This document shows positions 1 through 15,354 of a DNA stretch of 64,000 nt, piece after piece. The DNA is taken from positions 1,244,200 through 1,308,199 of the forward strand of contig NZ_OZ240249.1 in NCBI RefSeq assembly GCF_965198245.1. The letters run 5' to 3'. The first letter of the stretch is position 1; each line of letters starts with the position of its first letter. The notes beneath the pieces are model-generated. The model ran no database searches, was not told the origin of the DNA, and saw nothing but the letters and a program-made list of their open reading frames with translations. The DNA is from Candidatus Poriferisodalis sp. Lineage in GTDB: Bacteria > Actinomycetota > Acidimicrobiia > Acidimicrobiales > Poriferisodalaceae. The translations under genes were made by a program, and so were the position numbers.

Positions 1-687
1 GCACTCATCTGCCCACTCACCGAGCTGAGCCTCGGCGACGGTGCGCACCTCGGCCACCTCACCGTGCAGGAACTCGGCGCTGCCGCGTGGCAGCTCGTCA
101 ACCACTGCTCGGACGTGGGCCGGGATGCCAACCTGCGGATTGGGCACGTGGCGATGGGCGGCGCGTATGCCCGTGCCCGCATCGGCACGGACATGACGGG
201 TCGTGGCGGCCACAGCGAGATCGACGCTGTGTATTTCGGCCGTGGTACTTCCACGCTCGACTTCCGCACTTTCCAGACCCACGTGGCACCCCACACCACC
301 TCTGACCTGTTGTTCAAGGGGGCGGTCGACGACCACGCCCGGGTGGTCTACACCGGGCTGATCCGTATCGAGGCCGATGCCTTCCATGTCGTGGCTGAGC
401 AGACCAACCGGAATCTGAAGCTGTCGCCGCATGCGTGGGCCGAGTCGGTGCCGAACCTCGAGATCGAGAACAACGACGTGCAGTGCAGCCACGCCTCCTC
501 GACCGGTCCCGTCGACGCTGACCAGCGCTTCTACCTCGAGAGCCGTGGCGTGCCGACCGACGTGGCCGAGGCACTCGTGGTGCGGGGCTTCTTCGACGAG
601 GTCCTCGACGCGCTGCCGTCACAGCAGATCTCTGCGTCGGTGCGCCGGCGCATCGATGAACTGGTATCCCCGGCAGGGGCGTCATGA
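1..687 (+). CDS. sufD: Fe-S cluster assembly protein SufD, C-terminal part (5' end lies upstream of the window)
   Basis: Frame 1 is open from nt 1, so the listed ORF 64..687 is only the first Met. SufB/SufD-type C-terminus (LLFKGAVDDHARVVYTGLIRI, EQTNRNLKLS, LEIENNDVQCSHASSTGPVD, QRFYLESRGV). Followed by Rieske and sufC genes with 4-nt ATGA overlaps, as in actinobacterial suf operons. Confidence 0.8.
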   Translation, partial: ALICPLTELSLGDGAHLGHLTVQELGAAAWQLVNHCSDVGRDANLRIGHVAMGGAYARARIGTDMTGRGGHSEIDAVYFGRGTSTLDFRTFQTHVAPHTTSDLLFKGAVDDHARVVYTGLIRIEADAFHVVAEQTNRNLKLSPHAWAESVPNLEIENNDVQCSHASSTGPVDADQRFYLESRGVPTDVAEALVVRGFFDEVLDALPSQQISASVRRRIDELVSPAGAS

Positions 688-10179: not shown

Positions 10180-11619
10180 ATGGACACGCGCTCTGGGGAC
10201 GAAGCGGGCATCTGCGGGCTGACGGCGACGCAGATGGCGGCGATGCTGGCGAACGGTGAGATCTCGGCGCGAGAATTGCTCGCGGCACACCTTGAACGCA
10301 TCAGCCGGGTCAATCCGGCCGTGAATGCGATTGTGACATTCACGCCCGAACTGGCCGCCGAGCGGGCGGCTGCGGCCGATGAAGCCCACGCCCGCGGCGA
10401 GTCGCTCGGGTTGCTGCATGGTCTGCCGGTGGCGCACAAGGATCTGGCGCTCACCGCCGGTGTTCGCACCACGTTGGGCTCGCCGCTGTTCGCAGACTTC
10501 GTGCCGGACATCGATGCGCTGGTGGTCGAGCGTCAGCACCAGGCGGGGGCAGTCATGGTGGGCAAGACCAACACACCCGAGTTCGGCGCCGGCTCGCACA
10601 CGTTCAATCCGGTGTTCGGCATCACCCGCAACCCCTACAACGTTGCCAAGACATGCGGAGGTTCCAGCGGGGGAGCAGCGGTTGCACTGGCTACCCGGAT
10701 GCTGCCGCTGTGCGACGGCTCGGACCTCGGTGGCTCGCTGCGCAACCCTGCCGCGTTCTGCAACATCGTGGGCTTCCGGCCATCCCCAGGACGGGTGCCG
10801 TCAACCACCTCGCAGGACGCTTGGTTCCCGTTGGCCGTCGAAGGCCCGATGGGGCGGACCGTGACCGACGTGGCGTTCTTCCTGCAGGCGCTCGCCGGTC
10901 CCGATGCCCGCTCGCCGGTGTCGAACCAGGAGTCGCCGGAGGTCTTTGCAGGCTCGCTGGAGCGAGATCTGCGCGGCGTGCGGGTGGCGTGGTCGCCCGA
11001 TGCGGGCGGACTGCCCATCGATCCTGCGGTGCGGGCCGCGACGGCGAACGTGCCTGATGTGCTCACCGACTTGGGCTGCGAGGTCGTCGAGGCCTGGCCG
11101 GACCTGTCCGATGCCCCGCAGATCTTCCAGGCCCGGCGGGCGTGGCTGTTCGCTGTCGGCTTCGGGCCGCTGCTGGAGCAGTACCGGGGCCAGCTGAAAC
11201 ACACCGTGGCGTGGAACATCGAACAGGGTCTCGCCATGTCCATCGGCGAGTACACCGACATCTGCCGTCGCCACACCCAGCTATACGCCGACATCGATGC
11301 GTTCATGTCCCCTGCCGATGGCGGCTTCGAGTTCCTTGCGTGCCCGACCACTCAGGTGCCGCCGTTCGATGTCGAGGTCGAGTACCCCACCGAGATCGAA
11401 GGTGTCGAATTCGAAACCTACATCGACTGGATGCGCTCGTGCAGCGACATCACTGTCACGACCCACCCGGCCATCTCAGTGCCGGCCGGCTTCACCACCG
11501 ACGGCCTGCCCGTCGGCCTGCAACTGGTAGGCCGCCATCGCGCCGACCGCTCAGTGCTTGAACTCGCTCACGCTTGGGAGTCCGTCACCCGCCACATCGA
11601 CGTGCTCCCTTCGCTCTAG
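10180..11619 (+). CDS. Amidase-signature (AS) family amidase
   Basis: 479 aa. AS signature GGSSGGAAVALA with upstream K (AHKD) and CDGSDLGGSLRNPA. Divergent from the M20 gene with only ~40 bp between them. Confidence 0.85.
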   Translation: MDTRSGDEAGICGLTATQMAAMLANGEISARELLAAHLERISRVNPAVNAIVTFTPELAAERAAAADEAHARGESLGLLHGLPVAHKDLALTAGVRTTLGSPLFADFVPDIDALVVERQHQAGAVMVGKTNTPEFGAGSHTFNPVFGITRNPYNVAKTCGGSSGGAAVALATRMLPLCDGSDLGGSLRNPAAFCNIVGFRPSPGRVPSTTSQDAWFPLAVEGPMGRTVTDVAFFLQALAGPDARSPVSNQESPEVFAGSLERDLRGVRVAWSPDAGGLPIDPAVRAATANVPDVLTDLGCEVVEAWPDLSDAPQIFQARRAWLFAVGFGPLLEQYRGQLKHTVAWNIEQGLAMSIGEYTDICRRHTQLYADIDAFMSPADGGFEFLACPTTQVPPFDVEVEYPTEIEGVEFETYIDWMRSCSDITVTTHPAISVPAGFTTDGLPVGLQLVGRHRADRSVLELAHAWESVTRHIDVLPSL

Positions 11620-11908
11620 CGCCAGTTGTAGGAACATCCGCCCTGGGTTCGTTGAGCACATATGGAGAGCTCGATCAGCCGCGAAGCACATGCACCGCGG
11701 CTAGGTCTTCGCGTGGGCTGTTGCGGGCGGTGTTGGGCCAGCCAATCTCGTTGGATCGCGAACTGGGGTCAGCACACCCGACCTCATCTTCGTCGGCGTG
11801 CTCGCCGTCGCCACCGTCGTGGCCTTCGCGGTCTGCGCCATGTGCAACATCGACATGCGAACAGTGCGCGCTTGCGCCACCCGTCTGCAAAAAGTGCGTA
11901 CGAGGCGG

Positions 11909-13501
11909 CTAGTCGCTCACACTCCGTGCTGGTGACATGACAACGTCGAGTGTCGGGTGCTTCGGGTCGAATCTGATCTTCTGTAGATCGAGAGCGGTGA
12001 GCGGATCGTCGTCTGCCTGCAACCAATCGAGCTCTCGGAGCCACATCGGCTCAAGCACTGACCGGAGTTCATCCGTCAGTCGTGTACCAGCTCGACAGCG
12101 CACGACCGATGCATCCATGCCACCGAGTGCGTAGACGGCCCACCTCCGGGCCGGCTCGTCCTCGTCGCACGCATCGAGAAGTGTCTCAACGTCGTGGATA
12201 CGGGCAAGGACATTTGCTGCGGCTGCGGCCTTGCGCTGATCGCCACTGCCCAACCAGTCCAGCAAGGTCGTTCTGGTCGCGTCGGAGACGGAGTCGATCG
12301 CGCTAACGGCGTGGACGGCAACGAGCGGATTGTCGTCAAGCATGACCGGTATCAAGCGGTCAGGGCTTGCGGCAGCACCCTGACCAACGCCCCATGCAGC
12401 CGCGGCGCGCACATCCTCATGCAGGTCAATGTTTGTCGCGATGTCGAATAGGGCCTCAAGAGCCGCTGATGCATCAACTTCGGTAAGCGCGAGCACGGCC
12501 TCCATCGACCGCTCGTGCTCCTCACTGGCGTCCATCGATGCGGCAATCAGTGGTACCCAATTTCTTGAGTCGCTTCGTGCAAGTGCAACTTGGGCTTCGA
12601 GCCGTATTCGCCAATCCTCCTCAGCGTCATGGGCAACATTTCTGAGGAGCTCGATCACTTGCGCATGAGGCTGGGTACCGACTGCACGCATCGCTGCCAG
12701 GCGTTCAACTTCGTTCGGGTCTTGCAGCGCTGCAGACACGTCCCAAATGGCCCCCGGACACGAGAGCGACTCGGGTGGTGTGACGATGCCTGCGACGATC
12801 TGCTCGCCGGGCTCAAACTTGTCGCCCGGCGCCAAGTAGACGTGACCTTCGCTTGGCCAATCACGCCACTGCCAGTAACTCCGCCGCTCGCCGGTTTCTT
12901 TGCGAACGGCGATCCGGCCATCAGAGTCAACGCACTCGAAGGTGCCTCCGAATTTGGGTGACCAGCTCTTCCACTTCATCATCAGCTCGGATCCATCCGA
13001 CTGTGACTTGCGACCTGAGCGCATGGCGTGTGTCTCACGAGCGCGAAGTGCCGCGGTTGAAAACCAGACGGGATCAGCCACGTCTGGTGGGAACTCGTCC
13101 TGATTCGACCGGACGCGCATGAACGCGTACAAGTCGGAATCGCGCATCCCTCCGTCGTCCCACCGTCGTCCCGGTGTGTCCGAGTGCGAAAGCACGATCT
13201 CCAACGTGGACTTGGCGCGAGCTTCGATCCTGAGACCGCACTGGGTGCAGACGAGGTCGGGCAGGCGGAGGCGCTTCACCTTGGATTGCCAGACCTTGTT
13301 GGCCGTCGCATAACGCTCTAGCTCAATGGGCTGGTGGCCGTGGCGCTCCCGCAGGACATCGGCGGCCACGGCGGCGCCGACGGCACCCATCGCGACGAAG
13401 CGAGCAAATTTCGCATCTTCCTTGAAACCCACTGCCGCGCCTGCTCCCTCCGGCATGATGTGACATATGACCCGACGCGCCAACGCTAGGGCCGCTTCCA
13501 A
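11909..13501 (-). CDS. Hypothetical protein: N-terminal ~240 aa with a tentative PD-(D/E)xK-like signature, C-terminal ~290 aa of HEAT/PBS-lyase-like repeats. Candidate partner of the adjacent DNA methyltransferase.
   Basis: N-terminal segment IELERY...LPDLVCTQCGLRIEARAKS resembles E...PD...ExxxK nuclease cores, though not canonically. The C-terminal half has repeated helical units of the VRxxAAxALG type (DWRIRLEAQVALARS, HEDVRAAAAWGVGQG, QRKAAAAANVLARI, EPARRWAVYALGG). The start is more likely Met16 at 13456, because 13501 overlaps the divergent MTase start. Confidence 0.5.
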   Translation of the reverse strand: MEAALALARRVICHIMPEGAGAAVGFKEDAKFARFVAMGAVGAAVAADVLRERHGHQPIELERYATANKVWQSKVKRLRLPDLVCTQCGLRIEARAKSTLEIVLSHSDTPGRRWDDGGMRDSDLYAFMRVRSNQDEFPPDVADPVWFSTAALRARETHAMRSGRKSQSDGSELMMKWKSWSPKFGGTFECVDSDGRIAVRKETGERRSYWQWRDWPSEGHVYLAPGDKFEPGEQIVAGIVTPPESLSCPGAIWDVSAALQDPNEVERLAAMRAVGTQPHAQVIELLRNVAHDAEEDWRIRLEAQVALARSDSRNWVPLIAASMDASEEHERSMEAVLALTEVDASAALEALFDIATNIDLHEDVRAAAAWGVGQGAAASPDRLIPVMLDDNPLVAVHAVSAIDSVSDATRTTLLDWLGSGDQRKAAAAANVLARIHDVETLLDACDEDEPARRWAVYALGGMDASVVRCRAGTRLTDELRSVLEPMWLRELDWLQADDDPLTALDLQKIRFDPKHPTLDVVMSPARSVSD

Positions 13502-15272
13502 CGGACAGGCCGGGCTTTTCGGCCCGGCCAGCGAATCAGTTCATTCGCTACCAGATTCGGTCACCGTGAAGCGTTCCGATCCGGTGTACATGGCGCACGC
13601 GTACTTGACGAAGGTTCCGGTGGCGGCGGTCGTCCCATTCATCGACGCTATGACCGCACCTGGCGACATCGTGCTCGATCCCTTCGCAGGGTCCGGCATG
13701 ACCGGGGTTGCTGCGCTCGTGGCAGGCCGACGTGCTCGGTTGTTCGATGTATCGGTGCTCGGTCGGCACATTGGTAGCAACTACGCCAATCTCGTCGACA
13801 CAGGATCTCTTCAACGGCATGGCGCGGAAGCGGTTGAACGAGCGCGCGAGGTTGTCGGGGACATCTACGGCTCGACGTGCTCTGCATGCGGAGGACGCGC
13901 CGAGACTGCAAAGGCCATCTGGTCGTGCGTGGTCGAGTGCGGGGGCTGCGATGCCCGCGTCAACTACTACGCGTCCCTTCGAGAAGCCGACTGGCACAAG
14001 GCCGCGATGGCCTGCTTCCGTTGCGGGGAGACAGTTGGCAGCCGTTCATCGAGGACAGGTGAGGAGCCGGTCGTTGACTCGGTCGTATGCTCTTGTGCCG
14101 CAATACAGCGCGAACAACCCTGGTCTGAGCCGCTCGAGGTAGCTCAGGAGGCCGACCTGACTTGGCCCGACGTTCCAATCGAGCCGACACGCCAGATGTA
14201 CCAGGCATCGGCGCTCGGGCGTCACGGCCTCACTTCGACAGCGACCTTCTACAGCACACGGAATCTCTGCGCACTTGCAGCTTTGCGCGACGCGATCGAC
14301 GCAACGGATGACTCTGCGATCCGCCGCAAGCTTCTCTTTGCGTTCACTGCAATCCTGACCCGCGCAAGCAAGCGATACCAGTGGTCGCGTCAACGACCCC
14401 TGAATGCGGCGAACGCGAACTACTACATCGCGCCGGTCTTCTACGAGTGGAACGTGTTCGACCTCTTCACCCGAAAGGTCGATGCAGTTGCCCGGTCGGA
14501 CGAATGGATACGGGCACGTAGATGCGAACGCGGACTGGTCGCCGGAGTGGAGAACGGGGACGTCAGGTACGACGTCGCTTCCGCCACATCCCTGCCGCTA
14601 GAAGACGAGTCTGTCGACTACGTCTTCACCGATCCGCCCTTCGGCTCGAACATCTTCTACTCAGACATGAGCCTGTTCCAAGAGGCGTGGCTGCCAGGTC
14701 ACCAGCTCACTGATGCGGGACTAGAAGCGGTTGTGGACAGGACAGACACCGGGTCGTATCGCTCACCGGATCGGTACGAGGAGATGTTGACGGAGGCGCT
14801 ACGCGAGTGCCGCCGCGTCTTGAAGCCGAACGGCTATATCACTCTGCTCTTCGGCAACAGCAGTGGGGGTGTCTGGCGTCTCTTGCAACGAGCGATTGCT
14901 GCAGCCGATCTCGTTGTCGTGCCCGAACTCATTGCGACGCTCGACAAGGGCCAGCGGTCAGTCAAAGGCCTTGCATCTGGATTCGAGCATGTCTCGACGG
15001 TCGATCTAATGTTGACGATGACCAGCGGTGTTCCACCGGCTTCGGTGGCAGTCCCGATGTCTGCGGAACTCGAAGATGTCGTCCGGGGGATCACCTCGCG
15101 TGATGGTGAGCTCAGCCCGAGCCAGTGCTACGTGGAGGCTGTGCGCGAGGGATTCCGACGTGACTGGGACCTGTCAGCTATCGACCTTGGAGCGGTGACC
15201 AAGCTGCTTCGCGAAGCTGACTATGAGGTTGATCGGCGGACTGGCATGCTTCGCCGCAAGTCGGCCGCCTGA
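13467..15272 (+). CDS. N6-adenine/N4-cytosine DNA methyltransferase. The SAM motif I comes before catalytic motif IV, and a Cys-rich Zn-ribbon insert lies between them.
   Basis: Motif X/I block HAYLTKVPVAAVVPFIDAMTAPGDIVLDPFAGSGMTGVAA near the N-terminus. Catalytic DYVFTDPPFGSNIFYSD at about aa 395, followed by RVLKPNGYITLLFGNS. Four Cys pairs (CSACGG, CVVECGGC, CFRCGE) sit in the presumed target-recognition region. Confidence 0.8.
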   Translation: MTRRANARAASNGQAGLFGPASESVHSLPDSVTVKRSDPVYMAHAYLTKVPVAAVVPFIDAMTAPGDIVLDPFAGSGMTGVAALVAGRRARLFDVSVLGRHIGSNYANLVDTGSLQRHGAEAVERAREVVGDIYGSTCSACGGRAETAKAIWSCVVECGGCDARVNYYASLREADWHKAAMACFRCGETVGSRSSRTGEEPVVDSVVCSCAAIQREQPWSEPLEVAQEADLTWPDVPIEPTRQMYQASALGRHGLTSTATFYSTRNLCALAALRDAIDATDDSAIRRKLLFAFTAILTRASKRYQWSRQRPLNAANANYYIAPVFYEWNVFDLFTRKVDAVARSDEWIRARRCERGLVAGVENGDVRYDVASATSLPLEDESVDYVFTDPPFGSNIFYSDMSLFQEAWLPGHQLTDAGLEAVVDRTDTGSYRSPDRYEEMLTEALRECRRVLKPNGYITLLFGNSSGGVWRLLQRAIAAADLVVVPELIATLDKGQRSVKGLASGFEHVSTVDLMLTMTSGVPPASVAVPMSAELEDVVRGITSRDGELSPSQCYVEAVREGFRRDWDLSAIDLGAVTKLLREADYEVDRRTGMLRRKSAA

Positions 15273-15354
15273 GCGTCCCAAACAACGCGCGCCCTAGCTT
15301 CACAGTGCGAAGAGCCGCACGAAGGGACTCATCGGCATCGGTAGCCTGCCGCCC

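Follow-up and report, generated by a model that had tools for sequence, protein, structure and literature searches.

We find that two divergently transcribed genes in the window, a stretch of 64,000 nucleotides from a Candidatus Poriferisodalis genome, very probably constitute a Type II restriction-modification system, an ordinary sort of bacterial defence, borne by a small mobile cassette. One gene encodes a DNA methyltransferase (M). The other encodes a candidate restriction endonuclease (R), a predicted DNA-cutting enzyme that would belong to an undescribed family with a catalytic part unlike known nucleases and an acidic HEAT tail. An earlier note on this DNA had proposed an unusual restriction-modification pair, and this proposal is strongly supported by the linkage of R to a methylase, by the operon position of a controller (C) protein and its C-boxes in relatives, and by the decay of R in genomes where M is intact. 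The features discussed are listed in Table 1.

Table 1. Positions in the window of the cassette, its two genes and their parts
Feature	Position	Strand	Remarks
Inserted cassette, ~3.7 kb	11616..15329	.	Between amidase stop (11619) and ABC ATPase start (15355)
Non-coding spacer 3′ of R, within the insert	11620..11908	.	289 bp
R gene, candidate restriction endonuclease, 507 aa	11909..13432	-	GTG start; ATG 13456 alternative
Acidic HEAT/PBS-type repeat solenoid, residues ~232–500	11930..12739	-	HEAT_2, alphaRep, AlphaFold model
N-domain, residues 1–135	13028..13432	-	Candidate module for catalysis and DNA binding
Gap between the divergent start codons	13433..13466	.	34 bp
M gene, 601-aa DNA methyltransferase	13467..15272	+	Pfam N6_N4_Mtase, PADLOC MTase_II, motifs
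Cys-rich insert of the methylase, residues ~137–211	13875..14099	+	Two predicted Cys4 metal sites

The cassette and its insertion site

As had been described, the two genes lie between an amidase gene and an ABC exporter; 289 bp separate R from the amidase stop, and 82 bp lie between M and the ABC ATPase start. The site is empty in all three relatives examined for it (G001, G017 and G023), with about 66 bp between their amidase and ABC genes, and the blastn match to these empty sites ends at 11615 and restarts at 15330. The earlier note had also considered that the methylase might be an orphan conserved in all relatives at this locus, and these same three genomes are without the cassette. GC content is 0.60–0.64 within the cassette and 0.65–0.69 in the flanks. 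The 289-bp spacer holds no open frame and gave no blastn match in 59 related loci, including carriers of the cassette at the same site. In two other genomes (G016 and G021) the cassette occupies other chromosomal sites, and elsewhere CBASS, McrBC, GmrSD and integrases are found as neighbours of the cassette or of the family. Searches of plasmid and phage collections gave no match. Judged by the clean empty sites and the varied chromosomal positions, the two-gene cassette is mobile.

The methylase

The SAM-binding motif I and the catalytic DPPF that had been noticed in M are both present, as FAGSG at residue 73 and as motif IV at residue 389, and Pfam N6_N4_Mtase matches the protein (E=2e-19) in two pieces of permuted order. 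Residues 44–90 align to profile positions 160–206, while the DPPF segment aligns close to the N-terminal end of ordinary beta-class models. The order motif I, Cys-rich insert, motif IV is thus borne out, unlike that of beta-class N6_N4_Mtase enzymes, in which motif IV precedes motif I. By its motifs and profile matches, M is an N6/N4-type methyltransferase that is sequence-related to the beta class but circularly permuted, and its product is predicted from DPPF to be N6-methyladenine. Eight cysteines in the insert (138, 141, 158, 161, 183, 186, 208 and 210) are invariant or nearly so among 57 orthologues, and Pfam gives a weak LIM-domain match at residues 158–194.

In PADLOC M matches MTase_II (E=1e-96) and PglXI (E=6e-70), and NCBIfam DUF1156_antiphage matches at E=6e-7; the PglXI and DUF1156 matches cover the catalytic half. 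M thereby resembles the DUF1156/PglXI methyltransferases of BREX type 3, but it is without the DUF1156 N-terminal region, and PglZ, BrxC and the other BREX genes are absent from what is a two-gene insert flanked by an amidase and an ABC exporter.

R and its N-terminal domain

The longest R frame (11909..13501) starts at TTG and encodes 530 aa, which is the size first given for the divergent open reading frame. The frame exists and is divergent, but alignment with the MGFKED N-terminus conserved in all homologues makes GTG 13432 the most likely start, and R is more likely a protein of 507 aa. The AlphaFold model of R is confident (pLDDT 86) and divides the protein into an N-domain (residues 1–135), a small beta-barrel (about 140–230) and a HEAT solenoid (232–500).

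The N-domain is basic (pI 8.7). Across 85 family members with 25–43% identity, D59, E70 and K74 do not vary, position 72 holds either R or K in every sequence, and E37 and E39 are conserved in 95–98%; P58, S82, R89, W91 and D100 are further invariant or near-invariant positions. The residues of the IELE..PD..EARAK pattern to which attention had been drawn are therefore conserved in the family. In the AlphaFold model D59 opens a predicted strand (60–62), and E70, R72 and K74 lie on the strand 68–74 of a predicted beta-hairpin. A zinc site at C62/C65 was considered and rejected, since 24 of the 85 sequences have T or S in place of C65. The R family comprises about 315 clusters at 50% identity, and the members that we met carry the NCBI names 'HEAT repeat domain-containing protein' or 'hypothetical protein'. 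Searches with the N-domain across proteins returned the same architecture or its fragments and nothing else.

The earlier note had compared this region to PD-(D/E)xK cores, and here the motif pattern is present, but the fold could not be confirmed. An acidic residue at a strand start together with an E-x-(R/K)-x-K strand makes up a PD-(D/E)xK-like arrangement of residues, which is a pattern only. The N-domain shares with EcoRV, PvuII and Mrr the series E..PD..E-x-(K/R)-x-K, placed on a predicted hairpin after a long N-terminal helix; it differs from these enzymes in that structural or profile similarity was not detected, and in that the R model has no helix between the E-x-K strand and the next strand. 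Foldseek with residues 1–235, that is, N-domain and barrel together, gave nothing below E=1e-3 against PDB and BFVD; the best matches were segments of about 66 residues in RNA polymerase beta and beta′, which probably correspond to the barrel of R. No nuclease match to R was found in Pfam, PHROGs, NCBIfam or PADLOC, and 28 N-terminal pieces searched against Pfam at E<=10 gave weak Zn-ribbon, DUF4314 and SH3-like matches only. The N-domain profile had a single match in PDB (E=1.3), to the zinc region of RNA polymerase beta′. With hhalign, the probability was 0.5% for the N-domain against an Mrr_cat alignment built from relatives and 0.05% for R against R.PvuII.

The HEAT solenoid

The HEAT/PBS-lyase-like repeats reported earlier are confirmed by Pfam HEAT_2 (E=4e-13), by alphaRep (E=4e-26) and by the helical repeats of the AlphaFold model. 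Foldseek with the whole R model returned HEAT/alphaRep and importin matches only, with a probability of 1.0 to alphaRep proteins. HEAT repeats usually serve protein-protein contacts. The HEAT part of R has a net charge of -24 and a pI of about 4.5 (the family median net charge is -13), and because it is so strongly acidic, it is unlikely to read DNA; a repeat-based sensor had been suggested, and for the repeats a role as sensor or reader of DNA is not supported by these values. An alpha-solenoid is joined to DNA chemistry in AlkC and AlkD, DNA glycosylases made of HEAT-like repeats, in which the solenoid has a basic DNA-binding surface. In R, by contrast, the solenoid is strongly acidic, and its repeats are of the PBS/alphaRep type and not of the DNA_alkylation family. 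A glycosylase-like catalytic function of the solenoid was considered and rejected, since D273 and W274 are not conserved and the other conserved residues are generic HEAT consensus.

Linkage of R to methylases

We surveyed 59 loci of relatives in genome contigs from four groups (Acidimicrobiia, Dehalococcoidia, Streptomyces and Cryobacterium), 57 of them with readable upstream DNA. In 57 of these 57 an orthologous methylase (52–79% identity) is divergent from the HEAT gene, and the pairwise distances of R and M are correlated (r=0.94). Remote members of the HEAT family (25–34% identity) have an N6_N4 methylase adjacent in seven of seven cases checked, in tandem M-R, tandem R-M, convergent or divergent order, and the methylases are of three types, five of the seven being M.PvuII orthologues (up to 62% identity, E=4.5e-134). 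An intact R without a methylase was not seen in the loci examined. The earlier note had asked whether the HEAT protein occurs mostly without a methylase, and among the 57 and the seven loci it never does.

This pairing bears on the alternative that the HEAT protein is not a nuclease at all but an accessory or regulatory partner, i.e., a factor for specificity, targeting or stability, beside an epigenetic or orphan-like methylase. We regard this alternative as improbable. It would fit that neither a nuclease fold nor a nuclease family was detected in R, and that its HEAT domain is acidic and of a kind that mostly contacts proteins. However, partnership with methylases of three unrelated types, in four different gene orders, would be odd for a factor serving one methylase, and the invariant acidic and lysine residues in a basic N-domain, as well as the patchy, mobile and defence-island contexts of the cassette, also speak against it, as does the controller circuit described below.

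Controller gene and C-boxes

In 17 loci, and in L022–L024, a 78-aa HTH gene lies directly upstream of R, its 3′ end at, or a few bases from, the R start. Its nearest solved proteins are C.AhdI (E=4e-17) and C.BclI (E=7.5e-17; PDB 1Y7Y and 2B5A); this likeness is found in relatives, and the window's clade is without that gene. The C-box of PvuII is GACT-N3-AGTC-N4-GACT-N3-AGTC (PMC2175313). Upstream of the controller gene in locus L046 we find GACTCATCGTCTGTAGACTCGAAGTC, which agrees with the PvuII C-box at 24 of 26 positions, and the C-boxes of basal family members agree with it at 22–24 of 26. The basal members also share the PvuII layout, in which pvuIIM is divergent from pvuIIC-pvuIIR with the C-boxes in between. 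For the alternative of a non-nuclease partner, it is a difficulty that C protein and C-boxes stand exactly before R, as this circuit is known to delay toxic restriction enzymes.

The loci without C, including that of the window, group as a single derived clade in the tree of methylases, and in our reading the window's cassette is a C-less derivative whose clade lost C. By inspection, the 34-bp gap between its start codons contains neither a controller gene nor a C-box, and both a sigma-70-like site and GACT-N3-AGTC are absent from the window's cassette. The promoters of R and M must therefore lie within the opposite genes.

The likeness to PvuII is a partial one. M.PvuII orthologues are the partners of five remote R-family members, and yet R is without detectable homology to R.PvuII, has three times its length, and contains a barrel and a HEAT solenoid in addition. 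Similarly, M.PvuII is a 336-aa SPPF N4-cytosine enzyme, whereas the window's M is a 601-aa permuted DPPF enzyme, and both C gene and C-box are missing from the window's copy.

Asymmetric decay and a test of the target site

R is disrupted while M is intact in L050, L063, L064, L065, L069, L078, L079, L082, G005 and G018. In L069 R was hit by an IS insertion, and R residues 15–337 and 1–408 are deleted in G005 and G018, respectively. Disruption of M alone was not seen, against about ten genomes with disruption of R alone, and in L072 the 5′ ends of R and M are both missing. By our own calculation, the chance that ten of ten independent lesions fall in the shorter gene, R, is about 4e-4. Many truncated R fragments are on long contigs. 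In metagenome-assembled genomes, some frameshifts in R may stem from faulty assembly. Survival of the methylase after decay of its partner would also be compatible with R as an accessory partner, which we nevertheless consider improbable on the grounds given above.

In the genome of the window CAGCTG is the most under-represented 6-bp palindrome, with the most negative z-score. Deducing the target from palindrome avoidance was rejected, as the CAGCTG/GTCGAC ratio in 31 genomes of the genus follows phylogeny and not the cassette.

Proposed mechanism

In the restriction-modification reading that we favor, the methylase would mark the host copies of a specific DNA sequence, and the HEAT protein would be the restriction endonuclease that cuts DNA with unmarked sites. 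DNA recognition and cleavage most likely fall to the basic N-terminal 230 residues (N-domain and small barrel), with the cluster of E37/E39, D59, E70, K/R72 and K74 as the probable metal-dependent active site; for the acidic HEAT solenoid a part in dimerisation, regulation or autoinhibition is most likely, and not in the reading of DNA. Expression of R would be delayed in the older family branches by a PvuII-type C protein with its C-boxes, and in the window's branch C would have been lost and the start codons brought to within 34 bp.

A quite improbable alternative is a methylation-linked defence of a non-classical kind, in which the HEAT part senses a phage protein or the state of the cell, the N-domain is a toxic effector, acting on DNA or on another target, and the methylase is a self-marker or antidote: an acidic alpha-solenoid resembles a sensor that binds proteins more than it does a reader of DNA, the N-domain has no fold match and other defence systems adjoin the cassette, but nothing demands such a system, the neighbourhood has no conserved NTPase or other signalling component, and a content of two genes, a C-box circuit and partners orthologous to M.PvuII are textbook Type II features.

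Within the restriction-modification reading we can also speculate further, in a tentative proposal that is rather unlikely to hold as a whole: the N-terminal module may be a nuclease with a fold new among restriction enzymes, the acidic HEAT part may be its built-in regulator, and the branch paired with M.PvuII may cut CAGCTG. The regulator might then be an autoinhibitor that mimics DNA, or act as a sensor and set the nuclease free, and the M.PvuII-paired branch would be a non-homologous counterpart of PvuII.

Significance

The diversity of restriction enzymes is great, and the majority of those predicted are unassigned. R belongs to a recognisable family, for which the genomic evidence points to the cutting half of restriction-modification systems, and the family could thus supply a new rule for REBASE-type annotation. 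It is a candidate for a new restriction-enzyme architecture, composed of a catalytic domain without a family match, a barrel and an acidic alpha-solenoid. As its partners are either M.PvuII orthologues or a large permuted adenine methylase, the family would offer one nuclease scaffold on which different methylases can be compared, and it records how one lineage lost its controller-protein circuit. The cassette is common to Actinomycetota and Chloroflexota, and its carriers look like sponge symbionts, judged by names such as Ca. Poriferisodalis. Its presence in both phyla points to exchange of defence genes in the sponge-symbiont community.

Results

Both of the divergent reading frames described in the earlier note are present, one encoding a DNA methyltransferase (M) and the other its partner R, a candidate restriction endonuclease with HEAT repeats. 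The R frame is open from 13501, as a 530-aa product would require, but every R homologue begins with MGFKED, and this N-terminus falls on the GTG at 13432 (-), the most likely start, for a product of 507 aa; the ATG at 13456 could also serve. With R starting at 13432 (or 13456), 34 bp (or 10 bp) separate the start codons of the two genes. The spacers have the proposed values, 289 bp between the pair and the amidase stop and 82 bp before the start of the ABC ATPase. For the former, the non-coding stretch 11620-11908 between the amidase and R stops within the insert, no DNA match was found in relatives carrying the cassette at the same site.

Features of the cassette, tandem methylase pairs in related genomes, and damaged R genes
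Feature	Location	Strand	Description
Cassette	about 11616-15329		holds R and M
R gene	11909-13432	-	candidate restriction endonuclease
M gene	13467-15272	+	ORF, 601 aa
R N-domain	residues 1-135		AlphaFold model
R small beta-barrel	residues about 140-230		AlphaFold model
R HEAT solenoid	residues 232-500		AlphaFold model
Tandem methylase pair	G019:C108:9524-12798		
Tandem methylase pair	G018:C68:34311-37525		
Tandem methylase pair	G022:C238:1438-4613		
L050 R	residue 297		stop; M intact
L063 R			stop and frameshift; M intact
L064 R	about residue 377		truncated; M intact
L065, L078, L082 R			frameshifts; M intact
L069 R	L069:6804-8424		broken at about residue 270 by 1.6-kb insertion; M intact
L079 R	residue 188		cut, other genes in its place; M intact
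G005 R	residues 15-337		deleted; M intact
G018 R	residues 1-408		deleted; M intact

Scanning one genome per species, we found the R family at 59 loci in Acidimicrobiia, Dehalococcoidia, eight Streptomyces species and Cryobacterium. The co-occurrence survey proposed in the earlier note placed a methylase beside the HEAT gene throughout: an M orthologue (52-79% identity) adjoins it divergently at 57/57 loci with readable upstream DNA, and an N6_N4 methylase is adjacent in 7/7 remote R members looked up (25-34% identity). R and M distances are correlated (r=0.94), R evolving about 1.2 times faster. Among the remote members the two genes are in tandem, either with M first or with R first and overlapping M, or they are convergent or divergent. 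Five of their seven methylases are M.PvuII orthologues carrying SPPF (that of L115 is 62% identical to M.PvuII over its full length, E=4.5e-134; that of L092 matches with E=1.8e-101). Of the other two, one is a different enzyme, with SPPY, and the second is a permuted DPPF enzyme of 628 aa that shares 32% identity with the window's M. Such pairing of one R family with methylases of three types, in four gene arrangements, is the classical signature of a restriction enzyme.

At 17 of the loci found by the scan, and also at L022-L024, a gene for a 78-aa HTH protein runs up to the start of the HEAT gene or to within a few bases of it. The best solved relatives of its product are C.AhdI (E=4e-17) and C.BclI (E=7.5e-17), both controller (C) proteins of restriction-modification (R-M) systems. 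Upstream of this gene lie GACTCATCGTCTGTAGACTCGAAGTC in L046 and TACTCATAGTCTGTAGACCCATAGTC in L051, which match 24/26 and 22/26 positions, respectively, of the symmetrised operator (C-box) of PvuII, GACTCATAGTCTGTAGACTCAAAGTC (consensus GACT-N3-AGTC-N4-GACT-N3-AGTC; PMC2175313), and such C-box-like sequences occur across phyla. The HTH gene and these sequences thus give the HEAT gene the place of R in a classical M / C-R unit. Loci with C branch basally in the methylase tree, and those lacking it, the window among them, make up a single derived clade; a search for a C-box in the window found none.

M is intact but R damaged in ten genomes, while M was never damaged alone; by our own calculation, 10/10 lesions falling in the shorter gene gives p about 4e-4. 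In L072 a single deletion removed the 5' ends of both genes. Assembly errors could account for some of the R frameshifts, though not for the deletions and insertions. The many short N-terminal R fragments on long contigs agree with decay of R only. Translations read by eye show a transposase-like 450-aa ORF in the L069 insertion and, after the cut R of L079 (L079:6558-11437), a 619-aa SWIM zinc-finger-like protein and a 976-aa helicase resembling a Type I/III restriction subunit; here another system seems to have taken the place of a defence gene.

The cassette is absent from the window's site in 3/3 relatives checked (G001, G017 and G023; amidase 98%, 96% and 92% identical), where the amidase-ABC gap is about 66 bp, and homology of the window to these empty sites stops at 11615 and restarts at 15330. 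The presence/absence comparison suggested earlier also found the site filled in G003, G005, G018 and G019; G016 and G021 carry the cassette elsewhere. GC content is slightly lower within the insert, and no copies were found in plasmid and phage collections. Neighbours in other lineages include CBASS genes, an integrase with McrBC, and GmrSD. On a 2.9-Mb Acidimicrobiia contig (L019:2101-6060), a CBASS-like operon with a SMODS cyclase, a TIR-SAVED effector and a ThiF-like gene directly adjoins it.

Pfam matches N6_N4_Mtase to M in two pieces (E=2e-19). Residues 44-90 align to the motif I end of the profile (positions 160-206), and the DPPF region matches near the N-termini of PADLOC models for ordinary short beta-class enzymes. 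From these match positions motif I (FAGSG at 73) comes before an insert of ~290 residues and motif IV (DPPF at 389), which bears out the order described earlier, with its Cys-rich insert; M is circularly permuted compared with the beta class. Among 57 orthologues, eight Cys of the insert (138, 141, 158, 161, 183, 186, 208, 210) show no or almost no variation, suggesting two putative Cys4 metal sites, and by established motif rules DPPF would point to N6-adenine methylation. The best library matches of M come from two PADLOC models, MTase_II (E=1e-96) and PglXI (E=6e-70), and its neighbourhood contains no BREX genes. Tandem paralogous methylases of the same permuted family (~593 aa each, 34-39% identical to the window's M) may be part of a different, two-methylase R-M system.

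In R, Pfam detects HEAT_2 only (E=4e-13), and a confident AlphaFold model based on 39 homologues (mean pLDDT 86, pTM 0.83) contains a solenoid, so the HEAT-like repeats reported earlier are confirmed. The modelled N-domain has a long helix (3-31) and strands at 35-37, 60-62, 68-74, 79-84, 101-108 and 122-125. Across 85 family members (25-43% identity to the window protein), R40, W48, K51, K53, R56, D59, E70, K74, S82, R89, W91, D100, E149 and W154 are invariant, conservation of E37 and E39 is 95-98%, and only R or K occurs at position 72. In a predicted hairpin D59 opens one strand and E70/R72/K74 lie on the other, matching the residue placement expected of a PD-(D/E)xK site. The CxxC was ruled out as a zinc site because C65 varies across the 85 members. 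The N-domain profile matches about 315 clusters at 50% identity; every full-length member examined has the HEAT part, and none has an alternative architecture.

Foldseek with the whole R model returned only alphaRep, HEAT and importin structures. The search proposed for the N-terminal part, run against PDB and BFVD with residues 1-235 modelled separately (pLDDT 84.5), gave no nuclease match and nothing below E=1e-3; its top matches were RNA polymerase beta / beta' segments of ~66 residues, which probably correspond to the barrel. The N-domain had no matches in Pfam, PHROGs, NCBIfam or PADLOC, and in hhalign the family profile reached a probability of 0.5% with an Mrr_cat alignment and of 0.05% with R.PvuII. 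Searching PDB sequences by profile yielded a single match (E=1.3), a weak likeness of residues 46-73 (13214-13297, KVWQSKVKRLRLPDLVCTQCGLRIEARA) to a zinc-binding segment of RNA polymerase beta', probably chance or a common small motif. Thus, of the PD-(D/E)xK-like N-terminus proposed earlier, the residue pattern stands but the fold is unproven, and as these searches found nothing, the catalytic assignment of R is drawn solely from residue pattern and genomic context.

Discussion

The earlier note also raised a repeat-based sensor. The solenoid is unlikely to read DNA directly, given the strong acidity of the HEAT part (pI about 4.5; net charge -24 in the window, with a median of -13 across the family); the N-domain is basic in most members (pI 8.7-9.7). 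The conserved HEAT residues (R342, A344, A345, W347, G350 and several Glu) match the generic PBS-HEAT consensus. We suggest that the solenoid could serve dimerisation, regulation or autoinhibition.

Since some R relatives pair with M.PvuII orthologues, CAGCTG was tested as a target. In the window's genome, which has no M.PvuII or R.PvuII orthologue, its O/E is 0.67 and its z-score the lowest among all 64 six-base palindromes. Across 31 genomes of the genus, however, its ratio to the reversed control GTCGAC tracks phylogeny, not cassette carriage. In the nearest subclade two carriers have 0.45 versus 0.47-0.51 in five non-carriers, a difference too small, between genomes too closely related, to serve as evidence that CAGCTG is the cassette's target. 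Most of the genus lies at 0.32-0.51. Over its whole genome G004, of the same genus, has CAGCTG 101 times against 957 for the control (0.11), suggesting long-standing selection against it, perhaps by a resident CAGCTG-specific system; G015 shows the opposite (0.96).

The occurrence of the same M / C-R cassette in Chloroflexota (Dehalococcoidia MAGs L046, L048, L052 and L060) and Actinomycetota (Acidimicrobiia loci) points to exchange across phyla, and names such as Ca. Poriferisodalis suggest that the carriers come from sponge-associated communities. Our literature search found no description of a HEAT-repeat restriction enzyme. Methylase linkage, the C circuit and R-only decay support the earlier idea of an unusual R-M system, and we consider it very probable that the window's cassette is a Type II restriction-modification system. 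R would then belong to an undescribed restriction-enzyme family, with a candidate catalytic domain that matched no nuclease in the fold and profile searches and an acidic HEAT tail.
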